Origin: Eledone cirrhosa
Taxonomy: Eukaryota
NCBI GenBank assembly: GCA_964016885.1
Contig: OZ024744.1
Span: 132,804,001-132,868,000 of the forward strand
Direction: 5' to 3'
Length of the DNA stretch: 64,000 nucleotides
Shown here: positions 9,462-61,745 of the stretch, piece after piece
How the letters are laid out: every line of letters starts with the position of its first letter
How positions within the stretch are numbered: the first letter of the stretch is position 1
Notes under the pieces: model-generated
What the model was told of the DNA's origin: nothing
What the model saw: the letters and a program-made list of their open reading frames with translations, nothing else
Database searches by the model: none
Position numbers and translations under genes: made by a program

Positions 9462-9634
9462 GGGCTTAAGTTAAGTTGGGGCTAAGTTAAGTTGGGGTTA
9501 AGTCAAGTTGGAAGTTGTGGTTGAGTGAAGTTGGGGTTAAGTTAAGTTGGGGTTGAGTGAAGTTGGGGTTAAGTTAAGTTGGGGTTGAGTTACGTTGGGG
9601 TTGAGTGAAGTTGGGGTTAAGTTAAGTTGGGGTT
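9462..9634 (-). repeat. 173-bp inverted satellite island, copy 1 (TACG allele, upstream C6 run)
   Basis: The strand switches at CCCCGACTTA|GGGCTTAAG and switches back at GGGGTT|AACCCC. It contains the diagnostic AAGTCAAGTTGGAAGTTGTGG and GAGTTACGTT. Confidence 0.97.
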
Positions 9635-12600
9635 AACCCCAACTTAACTTAACCCCAACTTAACTTAACCCCAACTTAACTTAACCCCAACTTAACTTAA
9701 CCCCAACATAACTTAACCCCAACTTAAATTAACCCCAACTTAACTTAAACTCAACTTAACTAACCAACTTAACTTAACCCCAACTTAACTTAACCCCAAC
9801 TTAACTTAACCCCAACTTAACTTAACCCCAACTTAACTTAACCCCAACTTAAATTAACCCCAACTTAACTTAACCCCAACTTAACTTAACCCCGACTTAA
9901 CTTAACCCCAACTTAACTTAACCCCAACTTAACTTAGCCCCAACTTAACTTAGCCCCAACTTAACTTAGCCCCAACTTAACTTAACCCCAACTTAACATA
10001 ACCGCACCTTAACTTAACCTCAACTTAACTTAACTGCAACTTAACTTAACCCCAACTTAACTTAACCCCAACTTAACTCAACACCAACTTAACTCAACCC
10101 CAACTTAACTCAACCCCAATTTAACTCAACCCCAACTTAACTCAACCCCAACTTAACTTAACCCCAACTTAACTGAACCCTAACTTAACTTAACCCCGAC
10201 TTAAATTAAGCCCAACTTAACTTAACCCCAACTTAACTCAGCCCCAACTTAACTTAGCCCTAACTTAACTTAACCCCAACTTAACTTAACCCCAACTTAA
10301 TTAACCCCAACTTAAATTAACCCCAACTTAACTTAACACCAACTTAACATAACCCCATCTTAAATAAACCCCAACTTAAATTAACCCCAACTTAACTTAA
10401 CCCCAACTTAACTTAACCCCAACTTAACTCAGCCCCAACTTAACTTAGCCCCAACTTAACTTAACCCCAACTTAACTTAACCCCAACTTAACTTAACCCC
10501 AACTTAACTTATCCCCAACTTAACTTAACCCCAACTTAACTTAAACCCAACTTAACTTAACCCCAACTTAAACTATCCCCAACTTAACTTATCCCCAACT
10601 TACCTTAACCCCAACTTAACTTAACCCCAACTTAACTTAACCCCAACTTAATTTAACCCCAACTTAACTTAACCTCAACTTAACTTAACCCCAACTTAAC
10701 TTAACCCCAACTTAACTTAACCCCAACTTAAATTAGCCCCAACTTAACTTAACCCCAACTTAAATTAACCCCAACTTAACTTAACCCCAACTTAACTTAA
10801 CCCCGACTTAAATTAACCCCAACTTAACTTAACCCCAACTTAACTTAACCCCAACTTAACTTAACCACAAATTAAATTAACCCCAACTTAACTTAACCCC
10901 AACTTAACTTAACCCCAACTTAACTTAACCCCAACTTAACTTAACCCCAACTTAACTTAAACCTAACTTAACTTAACCCCAACTTAACCCCAACTTAACT
11001 TGACCCCAACTTAACTTAACCCCAACTTAACTCAACCCCAACTTAACTTAACCCCAACTTCACTCAGCCCCAACTTAACTCAGCCCCAACTTAACTTAGC
11101 CCCAACTTAACTTAACACCAACTTAACTTAACCCCAACTTAACTTAACCCCAACTTAACTTAACCCCAACTTAACTCAACCCCAACTTAACTTAACCCCA
11201 ACTTAACTCAGCCCCAACTTAACTCAGCACCAACTTAACTTAGCCCCAACTTAACTTAACACCAACTTAACTGAACCCCAACTTAACTTAACCCCAACTT
11301 AATATAACCCCAACTTAACTTAACCCCAACTTAACTCAACCCCAACTTAAATTAACCCCAACTTAACTTAACCCCAACTTAACTTAACCCCAACTTAATT
11401 AACCCCAACTTAAATTAACCCCAACTTAACTTAACACCAACTTAACGTAACCCCAACTTAACTTAACCCCAACTTAACTTAAACCTAACTTAACTTAACC
11501 CCAACTTAACCCCAACTTAACTTGACCCCAACTTAACTTAACCCCAACTTAACTCAACCCCAACTTAACTTAACCCCAACTTAACTCAGCCCCAACTTAA
11601 CTCAGCCCCAACTTAACTTAGCCCCAACTTAACTTAACACCAACTTAACTTAACCCCAACTTAACTTAACCCCAACTTAACTTAACCCCAACTTAACTTA
11701 TCCCCAACTTAACTGAACCCCAACTTAACTGAACCCCAACTTAACTTAACCCCAACTTAACTTAACCCCAACTTAACTTAAACCCAACTTAACTTAACCC
11801 CAACTTAAATTATCCCCAACTTAACTTATCCCCAACTTAACTTAACCCCAACTTAACTTAACCCCAACTTAACTTAACCCCAACTTAATTTAACCCCAAC
11901 TTAACTTAACCTCAACTTAACTTAACCCCAACTTAACTTAACCCCATCTTAACTTAACCCCAACTTAACTTAACCCCAACTTAACTTAACCCCAACTTAA
12001 ATTAACCCCAACTTAACTTAACCCCAACTTAACTTAACCCCGACTTAACTTAACCCCAACTTAACTTAACCCCAACTTAAGTTAACCCCAACTTAACCCC
12101 AACTTAACTTGACCCCAACTTAACTTAACCCCAACTTAACTCAACCCCAACTTAACTTAACCCCAACTTAACTCAGCCCCAACTTAACTCAGCCCCAACT
12201 TAACTTAGCCCCAACTTAACTTAACACCAACTTAACTTAACCCCACCTTAACTTAACCCCAACTTAACTTAACCCCAACTTAACTTATCCCCAACTTAAC
12301 TGAACCCCAACTTAACTCAACCCCAACTTAAATTAACCCCAACTTAACTTAACCCCAACTTAACTTAACCCCAACTTAATTAACCCCAACTTAAATTAAC
12401 CCCAACTTAACTTAACACCAACTTAACGTAACCCCAACTTAATTTAACCCCAACTTAAATTAACCCCAACTTAACTTGCCCCCAACTTAACTTACCCCCA
12501 ACGTAACTTAACCCCAACTTAATTTTACCCCAACTTAATTTAACCCCAACTTAACTTAACCCCAAATTAACTCAACCCCAACTTAACTCAACCCCAACTT

Positions 12601-13087
12601 AACTTAACCCCAACTTAACTTAACCCCAACTTAACTTAACCACAAATTAACTTAGCCCCAACTTAAATTAACCCCAACTTAACTCAACCACAACTTAACT
12701 TAACCCCGACCTAACTTAACCCCAACTTAACTTAACCCCAACTTAACTTAACCCCAACTTCACTCAACCCCAACTTAACTCAACCCCAACTTAACCCCAA
12801 CTTAACTTAACCCCAACTTAAATTAACCACAAAGTTAACTTAACCCCAATTTAAATTAACCCCAACTTAACTTAACCCCAACTTAACATAACCACCACTT
12901 AATTAACCCCAACTTAACTCAACCCCAACTTAACTTAACCCTAACTTAACTTAACCCCAACTTAACCGCAACTTAACTTAACCCCAACTTAACTTACCCC
13001 CAACTTAACTTACCCCCAACTTAACTGAACCCCAACTTAAGTTAAGCCTAACTTAACTTAACGCCAACTTAACTTAACCCCGACTTA

Positions 13088-13260
13088 GGGCTTAAGTTAA
13101 GTTGGGGCTAAGTTAAGTTGGGGTTAAGTCAAGTTGGAAGTTGTGGTTGAGTGAAGTTGGGGTTAAGTTAAGTTGGGGTTGAGTGAAGTTGGGGTTAAGT
13201 TAAGTTGGGGTTGAGTTAAGTTGGGGTTGAGTGAAGTTGGGGTTAAGTTAAGTTGGGGTT
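13088..13260 (-). repeat. 173-bp inverted satellite island, copy 2 (TAAG allele)
   Basis: Same junctions and length as copy 1, with GAGTTAAGTT in place of GAGTTACGTT. Confidence 0.97.
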
Positions 13261-16200
13261 AACCCCAACTTAACTTAACCCCAACTTAACTTAACCCCAA
13301 CTTAACTTAACCCCAACTTAACTTAACCCCAACATAACTTAACCCCAACTTAAATTAACCCCAACTTAACTTAAACTCAACTTAACTAACCAACTTAACT
13401 TAACCCCAACTTAACTTAACCCCAACTTAACTTAACCCCAACTTAACTTAACCCCAACTTAACTTAACCCCAACTTAAATTAACCCCAACTTAACTTAAC
13501 CCCAACTTAACTTAACCCCGACTTAACTTAACCCCAACTTAACTTAACCCCAACTTAACTTAGCCCCAACTTAACTTAGCCCCAACTTAACTTAGCCCCA
13601 ACTTAACTTAACCCCAACTTAACATAACCGCACCTTAACTTAACCTCAACTTAACATAACTGCAACTTAACTTAACCCCAACTTAACTTAACCCCAACTT
13701 AACTCAACACCAACTTAACTCAACCCCAACTTAACTCAACCCCAATTTAACTCAACCCCAAGTTAACTCAACCCCAACTTAACTTAACCCCAACTTAACT
13801 GAACCCTAACTTAACTTAACCCCGACTTAAATTAAGCCCAACTTAACTTAACCCCAACTTAACTCAGCCCCAACTTAACTTAGCCCTAACTTAACTTAAC
13901 CCCAACTTAACTTAACCCCAACTTAATTAACCCCAACTTAAATTAACCCCAACTTAACTTAATACCAACTTAACGTAACCCCATCTTAAATAAACCCCAA
14001 CTTAAATTAACCCCAACTTAACTTAACCCCAACTTAACTTAACCCCAACTTAACTCAGCCCCAACTTAACTTAGCCCCAACTTAACTTAACCCCAACTTA
14101 ACTTAACCCCAACTTAACTTAACCCCAACTTAACTTATCCCCAACTTAACTTAACCCCAACTTAACTTAAACCCAACTTAACTTAACCCCAACTTAAACT
14201 ATCCCCAACTTAACTTATCCCCAACTTAACTTAACCCCAACTTAACTTAACCCCAACTTAACTTAACCCCAACTTAATTTAACCCCAACTTAACTTAACC
14301 TCAACTTAACTTAACCCCAACTTAACTTAACCCCAACTTAACTTAACCCCAACTTAAATTAGCCCCAACTTAACTTAACCCCAACTTAAATTAACCCCAA
14401 CTTAACTTAACCCCAACTTAACTTAACCCCGACTTAAATTAACCCCAACTTAACTTAACCCCAACTTAACTTAACCCCAACTTAACTTAACCACAAATTA
14501 ACTTAACCCCAACTTAACTTAACCCCAACTTAACTTAACCCCAACTTAACTTAACCCCAACTTAACTTAACCCCAACTTAACTTAAACCTAACTTAACTT
14601 AACCCCAACTTAACCCCAACTTAACTTGACCCCAACTTAACTTAACCCCAACTTAACTCAACCCCAACTTAACTTAACCCCAACTTCACTCAGCCCCAAC
14701 TTAACTCAGCCCCAACTTAACTTAGCCCCAACTTAACTTAACACCAACTTAACTTAACCCCAACTTAACCCCAACTTAACTTAACCCCAACTTAACTCAA
14801 CCCCAACTTAACTTAACCCCAACTTAACTCAGCCCCAACTTAACTTAGCCCCAACTTAACTTAGCCCCAACTTAACTTAACACCAACTTAACTTAACCCC
14901 AACTTAACTTAACCCCAACTTAACTTAACCCCAACTTAACTTATCCCCAACTTAACTGAACCCCAACTTAACTTAACCCCAACTTAATATAACCCCAACT
15001 TAACTTAACCCCAACTTAACTCAACCCCAACTTAAATTAACCCCAACTTAACTTAACCCCAACTTAACTTAACCCCAACTTAATTAACCCCAACTTAAAT
15101 TAACCCCAACTTAACTTAACACCAACTTAACGTAACCCCAACTTAACTTAACCCCAACTTAACTTAAACCTAACTTAACTTAACCCCAACTTAACCCCAA
15201 CTTAACTTGACCCCAACTTAACTTAACCCCAACTTAACTCAACCCCAACTTAACTTAACCCCAACTTAACTCAGCCCCAACTTAACTCAGCCCCAACTTA
15301 ACTTAGCCCCAACTTAACTTAACACCAACTTAACTTAACCCCAACTTAACTTAACCCCAACTTAACTTAACCCCAACTTAACTTATCCCCAACTTAACTG
15401 AACCCCAACTTAACTGAACCCCAACTTAAATTAACCCCAACTTAACTTAACCCCAACTTAACTTAACCCCAACTTAACTCAACGCCAACTTAACTCAACC
15501 CCAACTTAACTCAACCCCAATTTAACTCAACCCCAACTTAACTCAACCCCAACTTAACTTAACCCCAACTTAACTGAACCCTAACTTAACTTAACCCCGA
15601 CTTAACTTAACCCCGACTTAACTTAACCCCAACTTAACTTAACCCCAACTTAACTTAACCCCAACTTAACTTAACCCCAACTTAATTTAACCCCATCTTA
15701 ACCCCAACTTAACTTAACCCCAACTTAACTGAACCCCAACTTAAATTAACCCCAACTTAAATAAACCCCAACTTAACTTAACCCCAACTTAACTTAACCC
15801 CAACTTAACTTAACCCCAACTTAACTCAGCCCCAACTTAACTTAGCCCCAACTTAACTTAACCCCAACTTAACTTAACCCCAACTTAACTTAACCCCAAC
15901 TTAACTTAACCCCAACTTAACTTAACCCCAATTTAACTTAAACCCAACTTAACTTAACCCCAACTTAAATTATCCCCAACTTAACTTATCCCCAACTTAA
16001 CTTAACCCCAACTTAACTTAACCCCAACTTAACTTAACCCCAACTTAATTTAACCCCAACTTAACTTAACCTCAACTTAACTTAACCCCAACTTAACTTA
16101 ACCCCATCTTAACTTAACCCCAACTTAACTTAACCCCAACTTAACTTAACCCCAACTTAAATTAACCCCAACTTAACTTAACCCCAACTTAACTTAACCC

Positions 16201-19200
16201 CGACTTAACTTAACCCCAACTTAACTTAACCCCAACTTAACTTAACCCCAACTTAACCCCAACTTAACTTGAACCCAACTTAACTTAACCCCAACTTAAC
16301 TTAAACCTAACTTAACTTAACCCCAACTTAACCCCAACTTAACTTGACCCCAACTTAACTTAACCCCAACTTAACTCAACCCCAACTTAACTTAACCCCA
16401 ACTTAACTCAGCCCCAACTTAACTCAGCCCCAACTTAACTTAGCCCCAACTTAACTTAACACCAACTTAACTTAACCCCAACTTAACTTAACCCCAACTT
16501 AACTTAACCCCAACTTAACTTATCCCCAACTTAACTCAACCCCAACTTAACTCAACCCCAACTTAAATTAACCCCAACTTAACTTAACCCCAACTTAACT
16601 TAACCCCAACTTAATTAACCCCAACTTAAATTAACCCCAACTTAACTTAACACCAACTTAACGTAACCCCAACTTAATTTAACCCCAACTTAAATTAACC
16701 CCAACTTAACTTGCCCCCAACTTAACTTACCCCCAACTTAACTTAACCCCAACTTAATTTAACCCCAACTTAATTTAACCCCAACTTAACTTAAACCCAA
16801 CTTAACTTAACCCCAACTTAACTTAACCCCAAATTAACTCAACCCCAACTTAACTCAACCCCAACTTAACTTAACCCCAACTTAACTTAACCACAAATTA
16901 AATTAGCCCCAACTTAAATTAACCCCAACTTAACTCAACCACAACTTAACTTAACCCCGACTTAACTTAACCCCACCTTAACTTAACCTCAACTTAACTT
17001 AACTGCAACTTAATTTAACCCCAACTTAACTTAACCCCAACTTAACTCAACACCAACTTAACTCAACCCCAACTTAACTCAACGCCAATTTAACTCAACC
17101 CCAACTTAACTCAACCCCAACTTAACTTAACCCCGACTTAAATTAACCCCGACTTAACTTAACCCCAACTTAACTCAACCCCAACTTAACTTAACCCCAA
17201 CTTAACTCAACCCCAACTTAACTTAACCCCAACTTAACTCAGCCCCAACTTAACTTAGCCCCAACTTAACTTAGCCCCAACTTAACTTAACACCAACTTA
17301 ACTTAACCCCAACTTAACTTAACCCCAACTTAACTTAACCCCAACTTAACTTATCCCCAACTTAACTGAACCCCAACTTAACTTAACCCCAACTTAATAT
17401 AACCCCAACTTAACTTAACCCCAACTTAACTCAACCCCAACTTAAATTAACCCCAACTTAACTTAACCCCAACTTAACTTAACCCCAACTTAATTAACCC
17501 CAACTTAAATTAACCCCAACTTAACTTAACACCAACTTAACGTAACCCCAACTTAACTTAACCCCAACTTAACTTAAACCTAACTTAACTTAACCCCAAC
17601 TTAACCCCAACTTAACTTGACCCCAACTTAACTTAACCCCAACTTAACTCAACCCCAACTTAACTTAACCCCAACTTAACTCAGCCCCAACTTAACTCAG
17701 CCCCAACTTAACTTAGCCCCAACTTAACTTAACACCAACTTAACTTAACCCCAACTTAACTTAACCCCAACTTAACTTAACCCCAACTTAACTTATCCCC
17801 AACTTAACTGAACCCCAACTTAACTGAACCCCAACTTAAATTAACCCCAACTTAACTTAACCCCAACTTAACTTAACCCCAACTTAACTCAACACCAACT
17901 TAACTCAACCCCAACTTAACTCAACCCCAATTTAACTCAACCCCAACTTAACTCAACCCCAACTTAACTTAACCCCAACTTAACTGAACCCTAACTTAAC
18001 TTAACCCCGACTTAACTTAACCCCGACTTAACTTAACCCCAACTTAACTTAACCCCAACTTAACTTAACCCCAACTTAACTTAACCCCAACTTAATTTAA
18101 CCCCATCTTAACCCCAACTTAACTTAACCCCAACTTAACTGAACCCCAACTTAAATTAACCCCAACTTAAATAAACCCCAACTTAACTTAACCCCAACTT
18201 AACTTAACCCCAACTTAACTTAACCCCAACTTAACTCAGCCCCAACTTAACTTAGCCCCAACTTAACTTAACCCCAACTTAACTTAACCCCAACTTAACT
18301 TAACCCCAACTTAACTTAACCCCAACTTAACTTAACCCCAATTTAACTTAAACCCAACTTAACTTAACCCCAACTTAAATTATCCCCAACTTAACTTATC
18401 CCCAACTTAACTTAACCCCAACTTAACTTAACCCCAACTTAACTTAACCCCAACTTAATTTAACCCCAACTTAACTTAACCTCAACTTAACTTAACCCCA
18501 ACTTAACTTAACCCCATCTTAACTTAACCCCAACTTAACTTAACCCCAACTTAACTTAACCCCAACTTAAATTAACCCCAACTTAACTTAACCCCAACTT
18601 AACTTAACCCCGACTTAACTTAACCCCAACTTAACTTAAACCTAACTTAACTTAACCCCAACTTAACCCCAACTTAACTTGACCCCAACTTAACTTAACC
18701 CCAACTTAACTCAACCCCAACTTAACTTAACCCCAACTTAACTCAGCCCCAACTTAACTCAGCCCCAACTTAACTTAGCCACAACTTAACTTAACACCAA
18801 CTTAACTTAACCCCAACTTAACTTAACCCCAACTTAACTTAACCCCAACTTAACTTATCCCCAACTTAACTGAACCCCAACTTAACTTAACCCCAACTCA
18901 ATATAACCCCAACTTAACTTAACCCCAACTTAACTCAACCCCAACTTAAATTAACCCCAACTTAACTTATCCCCAACTTAACTTAACCCCAACTTAATTA
19001 ACCCCAACTTAAATTAACCCCAACTTAACTTAACACCAACTTAACGTAACCCCAACTTAAATAAACCCCAACTTAAATTAACCCCAACTTAACTTAACCC
19101 CAACTTAACTTAACCCCAACTTAACTCAGCCCCAACTTAACTTAGCCCCAACTTAACTTAACCCCAACTTAACTTAACCCCAACTTAACTTAACCCCAAC

Positions 19201-22030
19201 TTAACTTAAACCTAACTTAACTTAACCCCAACTTAACCCCAACTTAACTTGACCCCAACTTAACTTAACCTCAACTTAACTTAACCCCAACTTAACTTAA
19301 CCCCATCTTAACTTAACCCCAACTTAACTTAACCCCAACTTAACTTAACCCCAACTTAAATTAACCCCAACTTAACTTAACCCCAACTTAACTTAACCCC
19401 GACTTAACTTAACCCCAACTTAACTTAACCCCAACTTAACTTAACCCCAACTTAACTTAACCACAAATTAACTTAACCCCAACTTAACTTAACCCCAACT
19501 TAACTTAACCCCAACTTAACTTAACCCCAACTTAACTTAAACCTAACCTAACTTAACCCCAACTTAACCCCAATTTAACTTGACCCCAACTTAACTTAAC
19601 CCCAACTTAACTCAACCCCAACTTAACTTAACCCCAACTTAACTCAGCCCCAACTTAACTCAGCCCCAACTTAACTTAGCCACAACTTAACTTAACACCA
19701 ACTTAACTTAACCCCAACTTAACTTAACCCCAACTTAACTTAACCCCAACTTAACTTATCCCCAACTTAACTGAACCCCAACTTAACTTAACCCCAACTT
19801 AATATAACCCCAACTTAACTTAACCCCAACTTAACTCAACCCCAACTTAAATTAACCCCAACTTAACTTATCCCCAACTTAACTTAACCCCAACTTAATT
19901 AACCCCAACTTAAATTAACCCCAACTTAACTTAACACCAACTTAACGTAACCCCAATTTAACTTAACCCCAACTTAACTTAAACCTAACTTAACTTAACC
20001 CCAACTTAACCCCAACTTAACTTGACCCCAACTTAACTTAACCCCAACTTAACTCAACCCCAACTTAACTTAACCCCAACTTAACTCAGCCCCAACTTAA
20101 CTCAGCCCCAACTTAACTTATCCCCAACTTAACTGAACCCCAACTTAACTGAACCCCAACTTAAATTAACCCCAACTTAACTTAACCCCAACTTAACTTA
20201 ACCCCAACTTAACTCAACACCAACTTAACTCAACCCCAACTTAAATCAACCCCAATTTAACTCAACCCCAACTTAACTCAACCCCAACTTAACTTAACCC
20301 CAACTTAACTGAACCCTAACTTAACTTAACCCCGACTTAACTTAACCCCGACTTAACTTAACCCCAACTTAACTTAACCCCAACTTAACTTAACCCCAAC
20401 TTAACTTAACCCCAACTTAATTTAACCCCATCTTAACCCCAACTTAACTTAACCCCAACTTAACTGAACCCCAACTTAACTTAACCCCAACTTAAATAAA
20501 CCCCAACTTAACTTAACCCCAACTTAACTTAACCCCAACTTAACTTAACCCCAACTTAACTCAGCCCCAACTTAACTTAGCCCCAACTTAACTTAACCCC
20601 AACTTAACTTAACCCCAACTTAACTTAACCCCAACTTAACTTAACCCAAACTTAACTTAACCCCAACTTAACTTAAACCCAACTTAACTTAACCCCAACT
20701 TAAATTATCCCCAACTTAACTTATCCCCAACTTAACTTAACCCCAACTTAACTTAACCCCAACTTAACTTAACCCCAACTTAATTTAACCCCAACTTAAC
20801 TTAACCTCAACTTAACTTAACCCCAACTTAACTTAACCCCATCTTAACTTAACCCCAACTTAACTTAACCCCAACTTAACTTAACCCCAACTTAAATTAA
20901 CCCCAACTTAACTTAACCCCAACTTAACTTAACCCCGACTTAACTTAACCCCAACTTAACTTAACCCCAACTTAACTTAACCCCAACTTAACCCCAACTT
21001 AACTTGACCCCAACTTAACTTAACCCCAACTTAACTCAACCCCAACTTAACTTAACCCCAACTTAACTCAGCCCCAACTTAACTCAGCCCCAACTTAACT
21101 TAGCCCCAACTTAACTTAACACCAACTTAACTTAACCCCACCTTAACTTAACCCCAACTTAACTTAACCCCAACTTAACTTATCACCAACTTAACTGAAC
21201 CCCAACTTAACTTAACCCCAACTTAATATAACCCCAACTTAACTTAACCCCAACTTAACTCAACCCCAACTTAAATTAACCCCAACTTAACTTAACCCCA
21301 ACTTAACTTAACCCCAACTTAATTAACCCCAACTTAAATTAACCCCAACTTAACTTAACACCAACTTAACGTAACCCCAACTTAATTTAACCCCAACTTA
21401 AATTAACCCCAACTTAACTTGCCCCCAACTTAACTTACCCCCAACGTAACTTAACCCCAACTTAATTTAACCCCAACTTAATTTAACCCCAACTTAACTT
21501 AACCCCAAATTAACTCAACCCCAACTTAACTCAACCCCAACTTAACTTAACCCCAACTTAACTTAACCCCAACTTAACTTAACCACAAATTAACTTGGCC
21601 CCAACTTAAATTAACCCCAACTTAACTCAACCACAACTTAACTTAACCCCGACCTAACTTAACCCCAACTTAACTTAACCCCAACTTAACTTAACCCCAA
21701 CTTCACTCAACCCCAACTTAACTCAACCCCATCTTAACCCCAACTTAACTTAACCCCAACTTAAATTAACCACAAGGTTAACTTAACCCCAATTTAAATT
21801 AACCCCAACTTAACTTAACCCCAACTTAACATAACCACCACTTAATTAACCCCAACTTAACTCAACCCCAACTTAACTTAACCCTAACTTAACTTAACCC
21901 CAACTTAACCGCAACTTAACTTAACCCCAACTTAACTTACCCCCAACTTAACTTACCCCCAACTTAACTGAACCCCAACTTAAGTTAAGCTTAACTTAAC
22001 TTAACGCCAACTTAACTTAACCCCGACTTA

Positions 22031-22203
22031 GGGCTTAAGTTAAGTTGGGGCTAAGTTAAGTTGGGGTTAAGTCAAGTTGGAAGTTGTGGTTGAGTGAAGT
22101 TGGGGTTAAGTTAAGTTGGGGTTGAGTGAAGTTGGGGTTAAGTTAAGTTGGGGTTGAGTTACGTTGGGGTTGAGTGAAGTTGGGGTTAAGTTAAGTTGGG
22201 GTT
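22031..22203 (-). repeat. 173-bp inverted satellite island, copy 3 (TACG allele, upstream AAGCTT)
   Basis: Same junctions and length as copy 1. Confidence 0.97.
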
Positions 22204-44400: not shown

Positions 44401-44462
44401 AGCCCCAACTTAACTTAACCCCAACTTAACTTAACCCCAACTTAACTTAACCCCAACTTAAC

Positions 44463-51070: not shown

Positions 51071-52970
51071 CTTAACTTAACCCCAACTTAATTAACCCCA
51101 ACTTAAATTAACCCCAACTTAACTTAACACCAACTTAACGTAACCCCAACTTAATTTAACCCCAACTTAAATTAACCCCAACTTAACTTGCCCCCAACTT
51201 AACTTACCCCCAACGTAACTTAACCCCAACTTAATTTAACCCCAACTTAATTTAACCCCAACTTAACTTAACCCCAACTTAATTAACCCCAACTTAAATT
51301 AACCCCAACTTAACTTAATACCAACTTAACGTAACCCCATCTTAAATAAACCCCAACTTAAATTAACCCCAACTTAACTTAACCCCAACTTAACTTAACC
51401 CCAACTTAACTCAGCCCCAACTTAACTTAGCCCCAACTTAACTTAACCCCAACTTAACTTAACCCCAACTTAACTTAACCCCAACTTAACTTATCCCCAA
51501 CTTAACTTAACCCCAACTTAACTTAAACCCAACTTAACTTAACCCCAACTTAAACTATCCCCAACTTAACTTATCCCCAACTTAACTTAACCCCAACTTA
51601 ACTTAACCCCAACTTAACTTAACCCCAACTTAATTTAACCCCAACTTAACTTAACCTCAACTTAACTTAACCCCAACTTAACTTAACCCCAACTTAACTT
51701 AACCCCAACTTAAATTAGCCCCAACTTAACTTAACCCCAACTTAAATTAACCCCAACTTAACTTAACCCCAACTTAACTTAACCCCGACTTAAATTAACC
51801 CCAACTTAACTTAACCCCAACTTAACTTAACCCCAACTTAACTTAACCACAAATTAACTTAACCCCAACTTAACTTAACCCCAACTTAACTTAACCCCAA
51901 CTTAACTTAACCCCAACTTAACTTAACCCCAACTTAACTTAAACCTAACTTAACTTAACCCCAACTTAACCCCAACTTAACTTGACCCCAACTTAACTTA
52001 ACCCCAACTTAACTCAACCCCAACTTAACTTAACCCCAACTTCACTCAGCCCCAACTTAACTCAGCCCCAACTTAACTTAGCCCCAACTTAACTTAACAC
52101 CAACTTAACTTAACCCCAACTTAACCCCAACTTAACTTAACCCCAATTTAACTCAACCCCAACTTAACTTAACCCCAACTTAACTCAGCCCCAACTTAAC
52201 TCAGCCCCAACTTAACTTAGCCCCAACTTAACTTAACACCAACTTAACTTAACCCCAACTTAACTTAACCCCAACTTAACTTAACCCCAACTTAACTTAT
52301 CCCCAACTTAACTGAACCCCAACTTAACTTAACCCCAACTTAATATAACCCCAACTTAACTTAACCCCAACTTAACTCAACCCCAACTTAACTTAACCCC
52401 AACTTAACTTAACCCCAACTTAATTAACCCCAACTTAAATTAACCCCAACTTAACTTAACACCAACTTAACGTAACCCCAACTTAACTTAACCCCAACTT
52501 AACTTAAACCTAACTTAACTTAACCCCAACTTAACCCCAACTTAACTTGACCCCAACTTAACTTAACCCCAACTTAACTCAACCCCAACTTAACTTAACC
52601 CCAACTTAACTCAGCCCCAACTTAACTCAGCCCCAACTTAACTTAGCCCCAACTTAACTTAACCCCAACTTAACTTAACCCCAACTTAACTTAACCCCAA
52701 CTTAACTTATCCCCAACTTAACTGAACCCCAACTTAACTCAACACCAACTTAACTCAACCCCAACTTAACTCAACCCCAATTTAACTCAACCCCAACTTA
52801 ACTCAACCCCAACTTAACTTAACCCCAACTTAACTGAACCCTAACTTAACTTAACCCCGACTTAACTTAACCCCGACTTAACTTAACCCCAACTTAACTT
52901 AACCCCAACTTAACTTAACCCCAACTTAACTTAACCCCAACTTAATTTAACCCCATCTTAACCCCAACTT

Positions 52971-53064
52971 AACTTAACCCCAACTTAACTGAACCCCAAC
53001 TTAAATTAACCCCAACTTAAATAAACCCCAACTTAACTTAACCCCAACTTAACTTAACCCCAAC
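52971..53064 (+). repeat. Left copy of the 94-bp direct repeat flanking the large inverted block
   Basis: Identical by eye to 55241-55334, with the same ordered variants AACTG, AAATT and AAATA. Confidence 0.8.
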
Positions 53065-53196
53065 GTAACTCAACCCCAACTTAACTTAACCCCAACTTCA
53101 CTCAACCCCAACTTAACTTAACCCCAACTTCACTCAACCACAACTTCCAACTTGACTTAACCCCAACTTAACTTAGCCCCAACTTAACTTAAGCCC
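53056..53196 (+). repeat. Eighth island copy, re-inverted (now C-rich on +) and truncated to 141 bp
   Basis: It contains CCACAACTTCCAACTTGACTT, CAACGTAACTC and AAGCCC|TAAGTCGGGG, which are exact reverse complements of the island markers. The last two island monomers (32 bp) are missing. Confidence 0.93.
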
Positions 53197-55240
53197 TAAG
53201 TCGGGGTTAAGTTAAGTTGGCGTTAAGTTAAGTTAGGCTTAACTTAAGTTGGGGTTCAGTTAAGTTGGGGGGTAAGTTAAGTTGGGGGTAAGTTAAGTTG
53301 GGGTTAAGTTAAGTTGCGGTTAAGTTGGGGTTAAGTTAAGTTAGGGTTAAGTTAAGTTGGGGTTGAGTTAAGTTGGGGTTAATTAAGTGGTGGTTATGTT
53401 AAGTTGGGGTTAAGTTAAGTTGGGGTTAATTTAAATTGGGGTTAAGTTAACTTTGTGGTTAATTTAAGTTGGGGTTAAGTTAAGTTGGGGTTAAGTTGGG
53501 GTTGAGTTAAGTTGGGGTTGAGTGAAGTTGGGGTTAAGTTAAGTTGGGGTTAAGTTAAGTTGGGGTTAAGTTAGGTCGGGGTTAAGTTAAGTTGTGGTTG
53601 AGTTAAGTTGGGGTTAATTTAAGTTGGGGCTAAGTTAATTTGTGGTTAAGTTAAGTTGGGGTTAAGTTAAGTTGGGGTTAAGTTAAGTTGGGGTTGAGTT
53701 AAGTTGGGGTTGAGTTAATTTGGGGTTAAGTTAAGTTGGGGTTAAATTAAGTTGGGGTTAAATTAAGTTGGGGTTAAGTTACGTTGGGGGTAAGTTAAGT
53801 TGGGGGCAAGTTAAGTTGGGGTTAATTTAAGTTGGGGTTAAATTAAGTTGGGGTTACGTTAAGTTGGTGTTAAGTTAAGTTGGGGTTAATTTAAGTTGGG
53901 GTTAATTAAGTTGGGGTTAAGTTAAGTTGGGGTTAAGTTAAGTTGGGGTTAATTTAAGTTGGGGTTATATTAAGTTGGGGTTCAGTTAAGTTGGGGATAA
54001 GTTAAGTTGGGGTTAAGTTAAGTTGGGGTTAAGTTAAGGTGGGGTTAAGTTAAGTTGGTGTTAAGTTAAGTTGGGGCTAAGTTAAGTTGGGGCTGAGTTA
54101 AGTTGGGGCTGAGTTAAGTTGGGGTTAAGTTAAGTTGGGGTTGAGTTAAGTTGGGGTTAAGTTAAGTTGGGGTCAAGTTAAGTTGGGGTTAAGTTGGGGT
54201 TAAGTTAAGTTGGGGTTAAGTTAAGTTGGGGTTAAGTTAAGTCGGGGTTAAGTTAAGTTGGGGTTAAGTTAAGTTGGGGTTAATTTAAGTTGGGGTTAAG
54301 TTAAGTTGGGGTTAAGTTAAGTTGGGGTTAAGTTAAGATGGGGTTAAGTTAAGTTGGGGTTAAGTTAAGTTGAGGTTAAGTTAAGTTGGGGTTAAATTAA
54401 GTTGGGGTTAAGTTAAGTTGGGGTTAAGTTAAGTTGGGGTTAAGTTAAGTTGGGGATAAGTTAAGTTGGGGATAATTTAAGTTGGGGTTAAGTTAAGTTG
54501 GGTTTAAGTTAAGTTGGGGTTAAGTTAAGTTGGGGTTAAGTTAAGTTGGGGTTGAGTTAAGTTGGGGTTAATTAAGTGGTGGTTATGTTAAGTTGGGGTT
54601 AAGTTAAGTTGGGGTTAATTTAAATTGGGGTTAAGTTAACTTTGTGGTTAATTTAAGTTGGGGTTAAGTTAAGTTGGGGTTAAGTTGGGGTTGAGTTAAG
54701 TTGAGGTTGAGTGAAGTTGGGGTTAAGTTAAGTTGGGGTTAAGTTAAGTTGGGGTTAAGTTAGGTCGGGGTTAAGTTAAGTTGTGGTTGAGTTAAGTTGG
54801 GGTTAATTTAAGTTGGGGCTAAGTTAATTTGTGGTTAAGTTAAGTTGGGGTTAAGTTAAGTTGGGGTTAAGTTAAGTTGGGGTTGAGTTAAGTTGGGGTT
54901 GAGTTAATTTGGGGTTAAGTTAAGTTGGGGTTAAATTAAGTTGGGGTTAAATTAAGTTGGGGTTAAGTTACGTTGGGGGTAAGTTAAGTTGGGGGCAAGT
55001 TAAGTTGGGGTTAATTTAAGTTGGGGTTAAATTAAGTTGGGGTTACGTTAAGTTGGTGTTAAGTTAAGTTGGGGTTAATTCAAGTTGGGGTTAATTAAGT
55101 TGGGGTTAACTTAAGTTGGGGTTAAGTTAAGTTGGGGTTAATTTAAGTTGGGGTTGATTTAAGTTGGGGTTAAGTTAAGTTGGGGTTATATTAAGTTGGG
55201 GTTAAGTTAAGTTGGGGTTCAGTTAAGTTGGGGATAAGTT
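53197..55240 (-). repeat. 2044-bp inverted (G-rich on +) satellite block
   Basis: Continuous TTAAGTTAAGTTGGGG repeats run from TAAGTCGGGG (53197) to the palindromic junction GATAAGTT|AACTTAAC (55240/55241). Confidence 0.98.
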
Positions 55241-55334
55241 AACTTAACCCCAACTTAACTGAACCCCAACTTAAATTAACCCCAACTTAAATAAACCCCA
55301 ACTTAACTTAACCCCAACTTAACTTAACCCCAAC
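55241..55334 (+). repeat. Right copy of the 94-bp direct repeat flanking the large inverted block
   Basis: Matches 52971-53064 at offset 2270 and begins exactly at the strand-switch point. Confidence 0.8.
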
Positions 55335-57220
55335 TTAACTTATCCCCAACTTAACTGAACCCCAACTTAACTGAACCCCAACTTAAATTAACCCCAACTT
55401 AACTTAACCCCAACTTAACTTAACCCCAACTTAACTCAACACCAACTTAACTCAACCCCAACTTAACTCAACCCCAATTTAACTCAACCCCAACTTAACT
55501 CAACCCCAACTTAACTTAACCCCAACTTAACTGAACCCTAACTTAACTTAACCCCGACTTAACTTAACCCCGACTTAACTTAACCCCAACTTAACTTAAC
55601 CCCAACTTAACTTAACCCCAACTTAACTTAACCCCAACTTAATTTAACCCCATCTTAACCCCAACTTAACTTAACCCCAACTTAACTGAACCCCAACTTA
55701 AATAAACCCCAACTTAACTTAACCCCAAGTTAACTTAACCCCAACTTAACTTAACCCCAACTTAACTCAGCCCCAACTTAACTTAGCCCCAACTTAACTT
55801 AACCCCAACTTAACTTAACCCCAACTTAACTTAACCCCAACTTAACTTAACCCCAACTTAACTTAACCCCAACTTAACTTAAACCCAACTTAACTTAACC
55901 CCAACTTAAATTATCCCCAACTTAACTTATCCCCAACTTAACTTAACCCCAACTTAACTTAACCCCAACTTAACTTAACCCCAACTTAATTTAACCCCAA
56001 CTTAACTTAACCTCAACTTAACTTAACCCCAACTTAACTTAACCCCATCTTAACTTAACCCCAACTTAACTTAACCCCAACTTAACTTAACCCCAACTTA
56101 AATTAACCCCAACTTAACTTAACCCCAACTTAACTTAACCCCGACTTAACTTAACCCCAACTTAACTTAACCCCAACTTAACTTAACCCCAACTTAACCC
56201 CAACTTAACTTGACCCCAACTTAACTTAACCCCAACTTAACTCAACCCCAACTTAACTTAACCCCAACTTAACTCAGCCCCAACTTAACTCAGCCCCAAC
56301 TTAACTTAGCCCCAACTTAACTTAACACCAACTTAACTTAACCCCACCTTAACTTAACCCCAACTTAACTTAACCCCAACTTAACTTATCCCCAACTTAA
56401 CTGAACCCCAACTTAACTTAACCCCAACTTAATATAACCCCAACTTAACTTAACCCCAACTTAACTCAACCCCAACTTAAATTAACCCCAACTTAACTTA
56501 ACCCCAACTTAACTTAACCCCAACTTAATTAACCCCAACTTAAATTAACCCCAACTTAACTTAACACCAACTTAACGTAACCCCAACTTAATTTAACCCC
56601 AACTTAAATTAACCCCAACTTAACTTGCCCCCAACTTAACTTACCCCCAACGTAACTTAACCCCAACTTAATTTAACCCCAACTTAACTTAACCCCAAAT
56701 TAACTCAACCCCAACTTAACTCAACCCCAACTTAACTTAACCCCAACTTAACTTAACCCCAACTTAACTTAACCACAAATTAACTTAGCCCCAACTTAAA
56801 TTAACCCCAACTTAACTCAACCACAACTTAACTTAACCCCGACCTAACTTAACCCCAACTTAACTTAACCCCAACTTAACTTAACCCCAACTTCACTCAG
56901 CCCCAACTTAACTCAACCCCAACTTAACCCCAACTTAACTTAACCCCAACTTAAATTAACCACAAAGTTAACTTAACCCCAATTTAAATTAACCCCAACT
57001 TAACTTAACCCCAACTTAACATAACCACCACTTAATTAACCCCAACTTAACTCAACCCCAACTTAACTTAACCCTAACTTAACTTAACCCCAACTTAACC
57101 GCAACTTAACTTAACCCCAACTTAACTTACCCCCAACTTAACTTACCCCCAACTTAACTGAACCCCAACTTAAGTTAAGCCTAACTTAACTTAACGCCAA
57201 CTTAACTTAACCCCGACTTA

Positions 57221-57393
57221 GGGCTTAAGTTAAGTTGGGGCTAAGTTAAGTTGGGGTTAAGTCAAGTTGGAAGTTGTGGTTGAGTGAAGTTGGGGTTAAG
57301 TTAAGTTGGGGTTGAGTGAAGTTGGGGTTAAGTTAAGTTGGGGTTGAGTTAAGTTGGGGTTGAGTGAAGTTGGGGTTAAGTTAAGTTGGGGTT
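57221..57393 (-). repeat. 173-bp inverted satellite island, copy 6 (TAAG allele)
   Basis: Same junctions and length, with flanking markers as in copies 2 and 5. Confidence 0.97.
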
Positions 57394-60300
57394 AACCCCA
57401 ACTTAACTTAACCCCAACTTAACTTAACCCCAACTTAACTTAACCCCAACTTAACTTAACCCCAACATAACTTAACCCCAACTTAAATTAACCCCAACTT
57501 AACTTAAACTCAACTTAACTAACCAACTTAACTTAACCCCAACTTAACTTAACCCCAACTTAACTTAACCCCAACTTAACTTAACCCCAACTTAACTTAA
57601 CCCCAACTTAAATTAACCCCAACTTAACTTAACCCCAACTTAACTTAACCCCGACTTAACTTAACCCCAACTTAACTTAACCCCAACTTAACTTAGCCCC
57701 AACTTAACTTAGCCCCAACTTAACTTAGCCCCAACTTAACTTAACCCCAACTTAACATAACCGCACCTTAACTTAACCTCAACTTAACATAACTGCAACT
57801 TAACTTAACCCCAACTTAACTTAACCCCAACTTAACTCAACACCAACTTAACTCAACCCCAACTTAACTCAACCCCAATTTCACTCAACCCCAAGTTAAC
57901 TCAACCCCAACTTAACTTAACCCCAACTTAACTGAACCCTAACTTAACTTAACCCCGACTTAAATTAAGCCCAACTTAACTTAACCCCAACTTAACTCAG
58001 CCCCAACTTAACTTAGCCCTAACTTAACTTAACCCCAACTTAACTTAACCCCAACTTAATTAACCCCAACTTAAATTAACCCCAACTTAACTTAATACCA
58101 ACTTAACGTAACCCCATCTTAAATAAACCCCAACTTAAATTAACCCCAACTTAACTTAAACCCAACTTAACTTAACCCCAACTTAACTCAGCCCCAACTT
58201 AACTTAGCCCCAACTTAACTTAACCCCAACTTAACTTAACCCCAACTTAACTTAACCCCAACCTAACTTATCCCCAACTTAACTTAACCCCAACTTAACT
58301 TAAACCCAACTTAACTTAACCCCAACTTAAACTATCCCCAACTTAACTTATCCCCAACTTAACTTAACCCCAACTTAACTTAACCCCAACTTAACTTAAC
58401 CCCAACTTAATTTAACCCCAACTTAACTTAACCTCAACTTAACTTAACCCCAACTTAACTTAACCCCAACTTAACTTAACCCCAACTTAAATTAGCCCCA
58501 ACTTAACTTAACCCCAACTTAAATTAACCCCAACTTAACTTAACCCCAACTTAACTTAACCCCGACTTAAATTAACCCCAACTTAACTTAACCCCAACTT
58601 AACTTAACCCCAACTTAACTTAACCACAAATTAACTTAACCCCAACTTAACTTAACCCCAACTTAACTTAACCCCAACTTAACTTAACCCCAACTTAACT
58701 TAAACCTAACTTAACTTAACCCCAACTTAACCCCAACTTAACTTGACCCCAACTTAACTTAACCCCAACTTAACTCAACCCCAACTTAACTTAACCCCAA
58801 CTTCACTCAGCCCCAACTTAACTCAGCCCCAACTTAACTTAGCCCCAACTTAACTTAACACCAACTTAACTTAACCCCAACTTAACCCCAACTTAACTTA
58901 ACCCCAACTTAACTCAACCCCAACTTAACTTAACCCCAACTTAACTCAGCCCCAACTTAACTCAGCCCCAACTTAACTTAGCCCCAACTTAACTTAACAC
59001 CAACTTAACTTAACCCCAACTTAACTTAACCCCAACTTAACTTAACCCCAACTTAACTTATCCCCAACTTAACTGAACCCCAACTTAACTTAACCCCAAC
59101 TTAATATAACCCCAACTTAACTTAACCCCAACTTAACTCAACCCCAACTTAAATTAACCCCAACTTAACTTAACCCCAACTTAACTTAACCCCAACTTAA
59201 TTAACCCCAACTTAAATTAACCCCAACTTAACTTAACACCAACTTAACGTAACCCCAACTTAACTTAACCCCAACTTAACTTAAACCTAACTTAACTTAA
59301 CCCCAACTTAACCCCAACTTAACTTGACCCCAACTTAACTTAACCCCAACTTAACTCAACCCCAACTTAACTTAACCCCAACTTAACTCAGCCCCAACTT
59401 AACTCAGCCCCAACTTAACTTAGCCCCAACTTAACTTAACACCAACTTAACTTAACCCCAACTTAACTTAACCCCAACTTAACTTAACCCCAACTTAACT
59501 TATCCCCAACTTAACTGAACCCCAACTTAACTGAACCCCAACTTAAATTAACCCCAACTTAACTTAACCCCAACTTAACTTAACCCCAACTTAACTCAAC
59601 ACCAACTTAACTCAACCCCAACTTAACTCAACCCCAATTTAACTCAACCCCAACTTAACTCAACCCCAACTTAACTTAACCCCAAATTAACTGAACCCTA
59701 ACTTAACTTAACCCCGACTTAACTTAACCCCGACTTAACTTAACCCCAACTTAACTTAACCCCAACTTAACTTAACCCCAACTTAACTTAACCCCAACTT
59801 AATTTAACCCCATCTTAACCCCAACTTAACTTAACCCCAACTTAACTGAACCCCAACTTAAATTAACCCCAACTTAAATAAACCCCAACTTAACTTAACC
59901 CCAACTTAACTTAACCCCAACTTAACTTAACCCCAACTTAACTCAGCCCCAACTTAACTTAGCCCCAACTTAACTTAACCCCAACTTAACTTAACCCCAA
60001 CTTAACTTAACCCCAACTTAACTTAACCCCAACTTAACTTAACCCCAATTTAACTTAAACCCAACTTAACTTAACCCCAACTTAAATTATCCCCAACTTA
60101 ACTTATCCCCAACTTAACTTAACCCCAACTTAACTTAACCCCAACTTAACTTAACCCCAACTTAATTTAACCCCAACTTAACTTAACCTCAACTTAACTT
60201 AACCCCAACTTAACTTAACCCCATCTTAACTTAACCCCAACTTAACTTAACCCCAACTTAACTTAACCCCAACTTAAATTAACCCCAACTTAACTTAACC

Positions 60301-61572
60301 CCAACTTAACTTAACCCCGACTTAACTTAACCCCAACTTAACTTAACCCCAACTTAACTTAACCCCAACTTAACCCCAACTTAACTTGACCCCAACTTAA
60401 CTTAACCCCAACTTAACTTAAACTTAACTTAACTTAACCCCAACTTAACCCCAACTTAACTTGACCCCAACTTAACTTAACCCCAACTTAACTCAACCCC
60501 AACTTAACTTAACCCCAACTTAACTCAGCCCCAACTTAACTCAGCCCCAACTTAACTTAGCCCCAACTTAACTTAACACCAACTTAACTTAACCCCAACT
60601 TAACTTAACCCCAACTTAACTTAACCCCAACTTAACTTATCCCCAACTTAACTGAACCCCAACTTAACTCAACCCCAACTTAAATTAACCCCAACTTAAC
60701 TTAACCCCAACTTAACTTAACCCCAACTTAATTAACCCCAACTTAAATTAACCCCAACTTAACTTAACACCAACTTAACGTAACCCCAACTTAATTTAAC
60801 CCCAACTTAAATTAACCCCAACTTAACTTGCCCCCAACTTAACTTACCCCCAACTTAACTTAACCCCAACTTAATTTAACCCCAACTTAATTTAACCCCA
60901 ACTTAACTTAAACCCAACTTAACTTAACCCCAACTTAACTTAACCCCAAATTAACTCAACCCCAACTTAACTCAACCCCAACTTAACTTAACCACAAATT
61001 AAATTAGCCCCAACTTAAATTAACCCCAACTTAACTCAACCACAACTTAACTTAACCCCGACTTAACTTAACCCCACCTTAACTTAACCTCAACTTAACT
61101 TAACTGCAACTTAACTTAACCCCAACTTAACTTAACCCCAACTTAACTCAACACCAACTTAACTCAACCCCAACTTAACTCAACGCCAATTTAACTCAAC
61201 CCCAACTTAACTCAACCCCAACTTAACTTAACCCCGACTTAAATTAACCCCGACTTAACTTAACCCCAACTTAACTCAACCCCAACTTAACTTAACCCCA
61301 ACTTAAATTAACCACAAAGTTAACTTAACCCCAATTTAAATTAACCCCAACTTAACTTAACCCCAACTTAACATAACCACCACTTAATTAACCCCAACTT
61401 AACTCAACCCCAACTTAACTTAACCCTAACTTAACTTAACCCCAACTTAACCGCAACTTAACTTAACCCCAACTTAACTTACCCCCAACTTAACTTACCC
61501 CCAACTTAACTGAACCCCAACTTAAGTTAAGCCTAACTTAACTTAACGCCAACTTAACTTAACCCCGACTTA

Positions 61573-61745
61573 GGGCTTAAGTTAAGTTGGGGCTAAGTTA
61601 AGTTGGGGTTAAGTCAAGTTGGAAGTTGTGGTTGAGTGAAGTTGGGGTTAAGTTAAGTTGGGGTTGAGTGAAGTTGGGGTTAAGTTAAGTTGGGGTTGAG
61701 TTAAGTTGGGGTTGAGTGAAGTTGGGGTTAAGTTAAGTTGGGGTT
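61573..61745 (-). repeat. 173-bp inverted satellite island, copy 7 (TAAG allele, short shared flanks)
   Basis: Same junctions and length. The usual flanks are present only from about 61270 to about 61950. Confidence 0.97.

Follow-up and report, generated by a model that had tools for sequence, protein, structure and literature searches.

The 64,000-bp stretch analyzed here (the window) lies within a satellite array in which short patches with identical ends run backwards, and it raises the question of whether such patches are retained for a role or are carried along passively as the array expands. The satellite has a 16-bp unit, AACCCCAACTTAACTT, and fills the whole window (TRF: positions 1-63993, 4033.9 copies, 90% matches), with unique 48-mers beginning at merely 5,571 of 63,953 positions. 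Widely spaced samples placed this multi-megabase array at 127.0-135.25 Mb of a 136.5-Mb scaffold, amid other satellites and at a distance of 1.2-9.5 Mb from the scaffold end. At its left end, 10.3 kb before the window starts, the forward block holding the window runs into 200 N, followed by a degenerate stretch. All copy numbers and spacings given below were taken from the assembly, in which the genome is represented by 1,796 pieces. A full-text match of the unit in six rotations found no mention of it in the literature.

Seven inverted islands and their junctions

An orientation scan found short reverse patches exactly where the initial annotation had placed seven inverted islands of 173 bp (Table 1), set against forward stretches of 3.4-21.9 kb. 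The islands had been described as identical in length and junctions apart from one internal SNP, and indeed the seven 173-mers collapsed to two sequences with a one-base difference at position 131 (counted 0-based). Each island holds 10.8 units of this 16-bp satellite in reverse orientation, and all seven have in common an irregular 23-bp unit, both junctions, and the variants of the left flank. The 19-mer junction CCCCGACTTAGGGCTTAAG was found eight times in the window, compared to 0 times in 100 shuffles.

The array had been called otherwise unidirectional, but a marker scan revealed a further reverse block at 53248-55232, together with a minus-strand eighth copy of the junction. It had also been stated that the diagnostic internal string of the islands, CCACAACTTCCAACTTGACTT, has no forward copy in the window, but it reads in forward sense at 53138-53158 (C28:132857138-158, +). 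This forward copy sits in a re-inverted island copy and is not an independent donor. The string has 68 copies in the genome, and none of these qualified as an independent forward donor: 64 lie at the expected offset, on the opposite strand to the exact junction, and the other four turned out to belong to islands whose junction differs by one base.

The description of the islands as spacer-less palindromes applies to the right junction only, whereas the left junction is without a perfect centre. At the right junction, a perfect arm of 27 nt (54-bp palindrome) is present in six of the seven copies, and in the copy at 22031 a substitution shortens the perfect arm to 20 nt (40 bp). The right-junction arms are 92-93% alike over 100 nt. 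Single-strand hairpins predicted at the two junctions were very stable (-156 and -135 kcal/mol, with z of -25 and -20), but these fold scores are nonspecific because any switch of satellite orientation yields a strong hairpin.

Table 1. Positions of the satellite array, the inverted islands and the associated features in the window
Feature	Position	Strand	Remarks
Satellite array	1..64000	+	C-rich strand on +; every other feature embedded within; from TRF and orientation scan
Core block, near-identical in all seven copies	9166..9846 (copy 1)	+	-296 to +384 from island start
Inverted island copy 1	9462..9634	-	C at position 131
Inverted island copy 2	13088..13260	-	A at position 131
Inverted island copy 3	22031..22203	-	C at position 131; in 4,944-bp tandem duplication with copy 4
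Inverted island copy 4	26975..27147	-	C at position 131; in 4,944-bp tandem duplication with copy 3
Inverted island copy 5	31125..31297	-	A at position 131
Inverted island copy 6	57221..57393	-	A at position 131
Inverted island copy 7	61573..61745	-	A at position 131; flanks in common with the others shortest (-296 to +384)
96-bp target stretch, left copy of direct duplication	52969..53064	+	flanks inverted insert
2,174-bp inverted insert	53065..55238	-	holds eighth junction copy (53188-53206, minus strand)
96-bp target stretch, right copy	55239..55334	+	flanks inverted insert

Islands, flanks and the genome-wide junction family

A MAFFT alignment of ±1000 bp around the seven islands defined the core block, whose variable columns are at -256, -76, -40, 131, and 193; this corresponds to 1 of 173 bp in the island versus 4 of 507 bp in the flank. 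Beyond the core, the islands are embedded in kilobase-scale blocks that are 99.9% identical, with 2 differences in 4000 bp left of the islands at 22031 and 26975 and 2 in 2200 bp right of those at 13088 and 31125. Pairwise flank homology (95% window threshold) was noisy, unrelated satellite stretches being 75-100% alike, and was kept for near-identical pairs only. Diagonals of rare 32-mers around the islands had offsets of 4944 (over 18139-22829), 18037 (12471-14760), and 44133 (12534-14430), and the distances between islands are the same as the offsets between duplicated blocks. The same diagonal pattern was seen in island-free stretches (offset 3291 over 44464-47618 and 5199 over 34310-36557). 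The shared junctions and co-duplicated kilobase blocks agree with the earlier proposal that one old event, either an inversion or an inverted insertion, was copied with its flanks, and the near-identity of neighbouring blocks likewise bears out a very recent amplification of the seven window copies.

It had been suggested, as the alternative to very recent amplification, that the islands are retained intact owing to a role, with a density and divergence matching passive hitch-hiking on random duplications named among the observations that would speak against this. Such a divergence was found: among 22 clean copies, which are related by descent and so do not provide independent samples for this comparison, segregating columns amounted to 5 of 173 in the island versus 18 of 507 in the flanks (11/296 left, 7/211 right), and pi was 0.77% versus 0.66%. 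The 22 were drawn from 33 aligned copies, with 11 rows dropped as partly unalignable through block replacement, deletion, or recombination. Since the island evolves like its flanks, hitch-hiking is favoured over function. Forward-oriented marker blocks far from the islands were present in 8-15 copies each in the window (for example, 15 copies of 3372-3458, 14 of 8088-8179, and 11 of 15698-15792), so that ordinary forward variants match or exceed the islands in copy number. Neither the spacing, given by the duplicated-block offsets, nor the gain and loss of units across the genome fits retention for a role.

Across the genome, a degenerate form of the left junction has 714 copies, with a single scaffold represented among the matches listed, while the exact left junction has 111 and a generic right-junction palindrome 774. 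Islands of exactly 173 bp account for 270 of the 714. This is about one copy per 12 kb if 127.0-135.25 Mb is taken as continuous, which is not entirely so; among the matches listed, successive junction sites are irregularly spaced, from 1 kb to >40 kb apart. Sampled copies had island lengths of 141 bp (a 32-bp deletion, in copy L012), 173 bp, ~198 bp (at 124.6 Mb), and 214 bp (at 130.25 Mb), and in some of them the left flank was replaced or carried a 48-bp deletion. The 173-bp form derives from the 214-bp form through deletions of 25 bp and 16 bp. The variants form a nested order, from the 214-bp island with a T-type left junction to the 173-bp island, the A-type junction, the GTTGTGG variant, and finally C or A at position 131.

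Junction point variants, such as GGGCATAAG, were found on both strands among the sampled copies. One junction sub-variant is paired on both strands, at 133.119/133.124 Mb (+) and 133.741/133.748 Mb (-). Compared by eye among the matches listed, the junction spacings of the forward block and of the reverse block on its right did not look mirror-like.

An eighth copy within a 2,174-bp inverted insert

The eighth junction copy lies in an inverted insert whose flanks were placed by exact 40-mer anchors. Read in reverse complement, the insert comprises 2,042 bp from the left flank of an island, followed by the left junction and the first part of the island (positions 0-131). Of its 2174 bases, 2170 agree with the block to the left of the next island, just beyond the right edge of the window. 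The insert is flanked by a direct duplication of 96 bp, equal to six satellite units; the exact 96-mer occurs 11 times in the window, nine of these as uninterrupted "empty" sites. At 55236-55245, the insert forms a new head-to-head junction, AAGTT/AACTT, and a 30-mer spanning it has no second occurrence genome-wide.

Recombination of an island with the forward array, producing a simple inversion, was considered as a source of the 2.2-kb block and rejected, as the far junction differs from the island right junction and as the 96-bp direct duplication has intact "empty" paralogs. Neither does a transposable element appear to be involved, since satellite units alone make up both the islands and the 2,174-bp insert, with no element-specific sequence or termini, and the flanking duplication likewise amounts to six satellite units and not to a short fixed target-site duplication. 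We infer that the eighth copy arose recently, by an inverted duplication that also duplicated 96 bp of target, and it would illustrate how inverted patches arise.

Orientation-changing breakpoints inside the island were seen in two of 34 sampled A-type copies (33 aligned copies and the eighth window copy), at positions 131-141 in the eighth copy and at position 37 in copy L019. The latter, at C28:133,355,385, is the end of the forward block holding the window. Given these two breakpoints, the islands may not be entirely inert.

Probable passive spread of a strand-switch scar

The seven islands are part of a family in which one strand-switch patch is present in at least 714 copies, and they very probably spread passively with kilobases of flank through recent segmental duplication or unequal exchange within the array. 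The founding patch would have had one origin, in which replication or the repair of a break switched template twice, first folding back and then returning. The right junction, GGGGTT/AACCCC, is centred on the self-complementary TTAA, and the older left junction, CCCCGACTTTGGGG, can be seen as a near-palindrome with a 2-nt centre if its G is taken for the consensus A. The eighth copy is probably a fresh instance of the same process: 2,174 bp from ~10 kb away would have been copied in inverted orientation and inserted, giving rise to the 96-bp target duplication and to a new head-to-head junction centred on TTAA. The islands would then persist as they are young and short, and not through selection; their only likely effect would be to serve as a substrate for further inversions.

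It is very unlikely that the islands are instead retained as periodic cruciform or dyad sites, for instance in centromere specification or chromatin organisation. The long perfect palindrome in six of seven right junctions, the similarity of its arms, the stable predicted hairpins, and the hundreds of densely placed junction-family copies would fit such sites, as would the thousands of conserved inversion-site copies in Tribolium madens, which the authors reporting them regard as possibly functional (PMC13081366). However, the islands are no better conserved than their flanks, they vary between 141 and 214 bp, with 173 bp in only 270 of 714 copies, and one window copy has had its palindrome arm cut by a substitution. 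Moreover, the irregular spacing among the matches listed follows duplication blocks, 22-kb stretches of the window are without islands, and a satellite yields a strong hairpin wherever its orientation switches. No support for a cruciform or centromere role was found at the sequence level. Assembly artefacts of a near-homogeneous satellite, affecting the islands themselves or their number and spacing, are extremely improbable. The 200-N run with degenerate sequence close to the window and the number of assembly pieces could point that way, but hundreds of copies have exact junctions, and nested subfamilies change consistently in island and flank. Nor would the derived form with 25-bp and 16-bp deletions, junction variants on both strands, and base-exact flanks be expected of an artefact.

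The islands could also be selfish drivers, whose palindromic junctions stall or break forks so that repair, by break-induced replication or template switching, preferentially duplicates island blocks and seeds larger inversions. Two sampled copies (the eighth and L019) do pass from inside an island into a long reverse array, and the fresh 2,174-bp inverted duplication ends within an island. However, a tally by eye of inferred homology breakpoints in a 688-bp core gave 2 in the 173-bp island versus 6 in the 515-bp flank, i.e., equal density, in small numbers, and blocks without islands were duplicated equally often; such a driver role is very unlikely. The broader claim that the islands are active in array dynamics, their junctions repeatedly stalling or breaking forks and thereby seeding template-switch duplications and large inversions such as the 2.2-kb window insert and the orientation flip at C28:133.355 Mb, is very improbable as well. 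If true, the growth of the satellite and its two-strand mosaic would be partly due to one self-propagating patch of 173-214 bp, which would parallel on a small scale, in an animal other than Tribolium, the conserved inversion sites of those beetles.

Passive spread of a scar has parallels in other satellites. Human HSat3 and beta satellites are reported to contain >200 inversion breakpoints, and strand switches in HSat3B5 of chromosome 9, beta, and divergent alpha satellites likewise change orientation within head-to-tail arrays; the hundreds of switches per array are read as rearrangement scars that build up and are carried along in expansion (10.1101/2021.07.12.452052). Unlike those arrays as described there, a single junction pair is here present at ~700 copies, the patch is short (141-214 bp), and the satellite has a 16-bp unit. 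Identical insertions in satellite arrays, including transposon copies in centromeric satellites with identical target-site duplications, are read in another report as one event copied by host recombination (10.64898/2026.09.17.752431). The logic of a founding event and array-internal duplication is shared, as identical junctions at every copy point to one founding event followed by duplication within the array, but the marker here, unlike that in the transposon case, is a reversed piece of the satellite itself. As in a scar within a satellite, one tandem unit stands in opposite orientation on either side of the junctions, and the islands show a single origin, co-duplicated flanks, and copy numbers comparable to those of ordinary variants. 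This makes the array a clean, sequence-resolved case of a single strand-switch scar that reached hundreds of copies via ordinary satellite expansion.

The satellites of T. madens, T. freemani, and T. castaneum have conserved inversion sites and macro-dyad symmetries, and, as in the present array, hundreds or thousands of near-identical inversion sites with predicted long-stem hairpins are reported to lie in megabase satellite (PMC13081366); the corresponding numbers here are 774 and 714 copies. In that account, the direct and the inverted subarrays each extend over kilobases in rough symmetry, with two satellites alternating as cassettes. Comparable direct and inverted subarrays of kilobases were not found here, where 173 bp of reverse sequence (141-214 bp in sampled relatives) stands against 3.4 to ~22 kb of forward array, and the window therefore has no macro-symmetry. 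A centromere-specifying satellite, as characterized in a further study, is bound by CENP-A/CENH3 and has short dyad symmetries within each monomer (PMC5889037). The present array calls for caution, since identical palindromic junctions at kilobase intervals, of a sort lately deemed possibly functional in beetles, can come from hitch-hiking alone; comparing the divergence and copy number of junctions with those of flanks and ordinary variants serves as the test. The junction words are also handy markers of array history in other individuals.

Inverted duplications formed by fold-back or template switching in yeast and human are reported to have head-to-head junctions at short self-complementary microhomology (PMC7467729, PMC11724301, PMC3907307, PMC10766186). 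The TTAA microhomology and the inverted copy of nearby sequence are the parallel here, and this junction anatomy suggests that the mechanism may be shared. Unlike the yeast and human events in those accounts, the events here are small and array-internal and have become fixed and been amplified in the germ line, with one fresh inverted duplication and its target duplication caught in the act.

Anatomy of the islands in the window

The whole window was found to be one tandem array of the 16-bp unit AACCCCAACTTAACTT (TRF: 1-63993, 4033.9 copies, 90% matches). An orientation scan, which used the C-rich versus G-rich hexamers of the unit, placed the array on the + strand, broken by seven short reverse patches, the islands, and one longer reverse block. 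The 19-mer left junction was found 8 times in the window and 0 times in 100 shuffles, with seven matches on the + strand at the islands, and the seven 173-mers collapsed into two sequences with a single-base difference at 0-based position 131. Junction search and 173-mer comparison therefore bore out exactly the seven 173-bp islands and the one SNP described in the initial annotation. The same annotation had taken the array to be unidirectional apart from the islands, which does not hold, since an eighth junction copy on the minus strand and a 2.2-kb inverted block had been overlooked; the island-internal diagnostic string, thought to be without a forward copy, does have a forward-sense match.

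Positions and copy numbers of islands, related features and junction sequences
Feature	Location	Copies	Detail
Island 1	window 9462 (start)		C at position 131
Island 2	window 13088 (start)		A at position 131
Island 3	window 22031 (start)		C at position 131
Island 4	window 26975 (start)		C at position 131
Island 5	window 31125 (start)		A at position 131
Island 6	window 57221 (start)		A at position 131
Island 7	window 61573 (start)		A at position 131
Eighth 19-mer junction	window 53188-53206		minus strand
Diagnostic string, forward sense	window 53138-53158		
Reverse block (scan)	window 53248-55232		
Inverted insert	window 53065-55238		2,174 bp
Direct repeat flanking insert	window 52969-53064 and 55239-55334		96 bp, exact
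Far junction of insert	window 55236-55245		AAGTT/AACTT
Forward marker block	window 3372-3458	15	
Forward marker block	window 8088-8179	14	
Forward marker block	window 15698-15792	11	
Forward marker block	window 10158-10308	10	
Exact left junction	genome-wide	111	60 +, 51 -
Diagnostic string	genome-wide	68	
Degenerate left junction CCGACTTWGGGSTTAAGTTAAG	genome-wide	714	74 +, 640 -
Generic right-junction palindrome	genome-wide	774	
Degenerate left junction and right junction	genome-wide	270	exactly 173 bp apart

Each island consists of 10.8 satellite units in reverse, among them one that is irregular at 23 bp (GGAAGTTGTGGTTGAGTGAAGTT). At the right junction (...AAGTTGGGGTT/AACCCCAACTT...) the sequence forms a perfect palindrome with a TTAA centre; its arms measure 27 nt in six of the islands but 20 nt in that at 22031, shortened by a flank substitution at +193, and over 100 nt they remain 92-93% alike. 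No perfect centre exists at the left junction (CCCCGACTTA/GGGCTTAAG). As single strands, both junction regions were predicted to form long hairpins (-156 and -135 kcal/mol, with z -25 and -20). Any orientation switch within a satellite would fold likewise, and the hairpin scores are therefore no specific evidence.

Duplication of the islands with their flanks

Tracing duplicated blocks as long diagonals of rare 32-mers showed that the islands move within larger duplicated blocks. An offset of 4944 over 18139-22829 marks a tandem duplication carrying islands 3 and 4, further offsets surround other islands (18037 over 12471-14760; 44133 over 12534-14430), and the spacings between islands (3626, 8943, 4944, 4150 and 4352 bp) are duplication-block offsets too. 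Equal diagonals were seen in island-free stretches (3291 over 44464-47618; 5199 over 34310-36557). Close pairs were nearly identical, with 2 differences in 4000 bp between the left flanks of 22031 and 26975 and 2 in 2200 bp between the right flanks of 13088 and 31125, and the core common to all seven copies ran from -296 to +384, counted from the island start. It was also noted that the two copies of the 4,944-bp tandem duplication, which spans 18139-27773, show ~4 differences in aligned flanks.

The initial annotation had proposed a single old event, recently copied together with its flanks, and had also raised a role for the islands, such as periodic cruciform or dyad sites. Judged from the block diagonals, the near-identical close pairs and the shared core, the first proposal appears right. 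For a functional role we found no support in the sequence, as the island is no better kept than its flanks and its copy number is ordinary. Across the seven window copies, one column varied in the 173-bp island and four in the 507-bp flank. A wider sample comprised 33 copies with the A-type left junction, in which the 7 window copies were joined by 26 from other sampled stretches; 11 of the 33 were left out for block replacement, deletion or recombination. In the remaining 22, segregating columns numbered 5/173 in the island, 11/296 in the left flank and 7/211 in the right flank, and the mean pairwise difference was 0.77% for the island vs 0.66% for the flanks, consistent with hitch-hiking; since the copies are related by descent, these figures compare regions of one genealogy and carry no significance test. 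Neither the seven nor the 22 copies showed better conservation of the island than of its surroundings. Homology breakpoints, tallied by eye from aligned copies over the 688-bp core, were of equal density in island (2) and flanks (6), albeit in small numbers. Unique 48-mers start at only 5,571 of 63,953 window positions, and forward-oriented marker blocks distant from the islands occur in 8-15 copies each, against which the islands showed no special copy number in the same window.

Identical insertions in satellite arrays have been interpreted as a single event copied by host recombination (10.64898/2026.09.17.752431). Strand switches are described as common in human satellites, with HSat3B5 and beta satellite showing >200 breakpoints and divergent alpha satellite many (10.1101/2021.07.12.452052). 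The nearest parallel is Tribolium madens, where two inversion-site sequences occur in 2,044 and 3,486 copies that are 98-99% alike; a conserved, multiplied inversion site is common to both systems. The authors propose structural significance for these sites and state that macro-dyad symmetries are to date found only in that genus (PMC13081366). That defining symmetry is missing here, where 173 bp are inverted vs kilobases of forward array, and the islands of Eledone cirrhosa passed a direct test of hitch-hiking. In their proposal on centromeres, Kasinathan and Henikoff deal with dyad symmetries of <10 bp within monomers (PMC5889037), which differ in scale from the present islands.

A 2,174-bp inverted insert

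Read in reverse complement, the insert holding the eighth junction contains 2,042 bp from the left flank of an island, then the left junction and then island positions 0-131. It matches the block left of the next island, just past the window's right end, at 2170/2174 bases, and the flanks of other islands at ~96%. The direct repeat at its borders comprises six units, and the same 96-mer occurs at 9 further window sites in uninterrupted, "empty" form. The far junction has a TTAA centre and is unique in the genome. This junction anatomy looks like the product of an apparently very recent replicative template switch, in which a block ~10 kb to the right would have been copied in inverted orientation before a return six units upstream of the departure point, leaving the 96-bp target duplication. 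The eighth copy would illustrate how inverted patches arise. Because one island junction is TTAA-centred and the other near-palindromic, the founding island may most simply be read as a smaller template-switch event of this kind, amplified later.

The island family on scaffold C28

The window lies at C28:132,804,001-132,868,000, on the 136.5-Mb scaffold C28 of a 3.0-Gb genome. Judged from 800-bp samples spaced 0.25-1 Mb, the 16-bp satellite occurs from 127.0 to 135.25 Mb, mainly in reverse orientation and with other repeats interspersed. All junction-family places among the matches listed (first 100 per search) were on C28.

The sampled copies record a nested history. At 130.25 Mb, 214-bp islands combine regular units with a T-type junction (GACTTTGGGC); adjoining 173-bp islands are shorter by 25-bp and 16-bp deletions, the former accounting for the irregular unit. 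At 132.94-133.11 Mb, the 173-bp form already has the A-type junction and retains GTTGGGG, while the window's form adds GTTGTGG and, in some copies, C-to-A at position 131. Among other copies, L012 has lost 32 bp and is 141 bp long, L018 has had its left flank replaced, L020 and L024 each contain a converted unit, L024 also lacks 48 bp of left flank, and a point change in the junction (GGGCATAAG) was seen on both strands; ~198-bp relatives lie in a separate array at 124.6 Mb. Left-flank variants adjoining the junction (AAGTTAAGCCTAAC... and, in most copies, AACGCC) were preserved across the family to the same degree as the island. The family thus looks like a neutral marker carried by an array as it expands. 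The rare GGGCATAAG junction with matching right-flank variants was seen at 133.119 and 133.124 Mb (L016, L017; +) and as a pair ~0.6 Mb away at 133.741 and 133.748 Mb (L061, L062; -), a hint that part of the array has undergone a large inverted duplication.

The forward block holding the window ends at a flip within C28:133,353,870-133,366,870 (L019/L023), where a left junction at 133,355,385 leads into no more than 37 bp of island before the array continues in reverse for at least 11.5 kb. After the eighth copy, this is the second in which orientation changes inside the island, and islands can therefore come to border larger flips. At 133.45 and 133.5 Mb, the samples were reverse too. On the left, the forward block meets 200 N and then degenerate sequence, and its long-range orientation may depend on scaffolding. 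The stretch there (L081, C28:132,793,543-132,794,200), at 10.3 kb from the window, has the 200-N run, either a gap in the scaffold or sequence that was withheld, another 16-bp repeat, TTTTAACCTAACCTAA, containing CCTAA pairs, a degenerate C/A-rich stretch and then forward satellite again.

The scaffold's last 400 bases hold a C/A-rich tandem repeat and no canonical telomere repeat. Scattered through the satellite domain at 132.2, 132.4, 132.45, 132.5 and 132.65 Mb (L039, L066, L070, L071, L074) are very AT-rich stretches (GC 0.18-0.20) whose motifs recur; they look like a second repeat family. The motif CATTCTAA.CACATGTCATAGTATCAG... is common to stretches at 118, 120 and 121 Mb (L026, L059, L060), 1-2 Mb apart, and therefore points to another multi-megabase repeat proximal to the 16-bp satellite.
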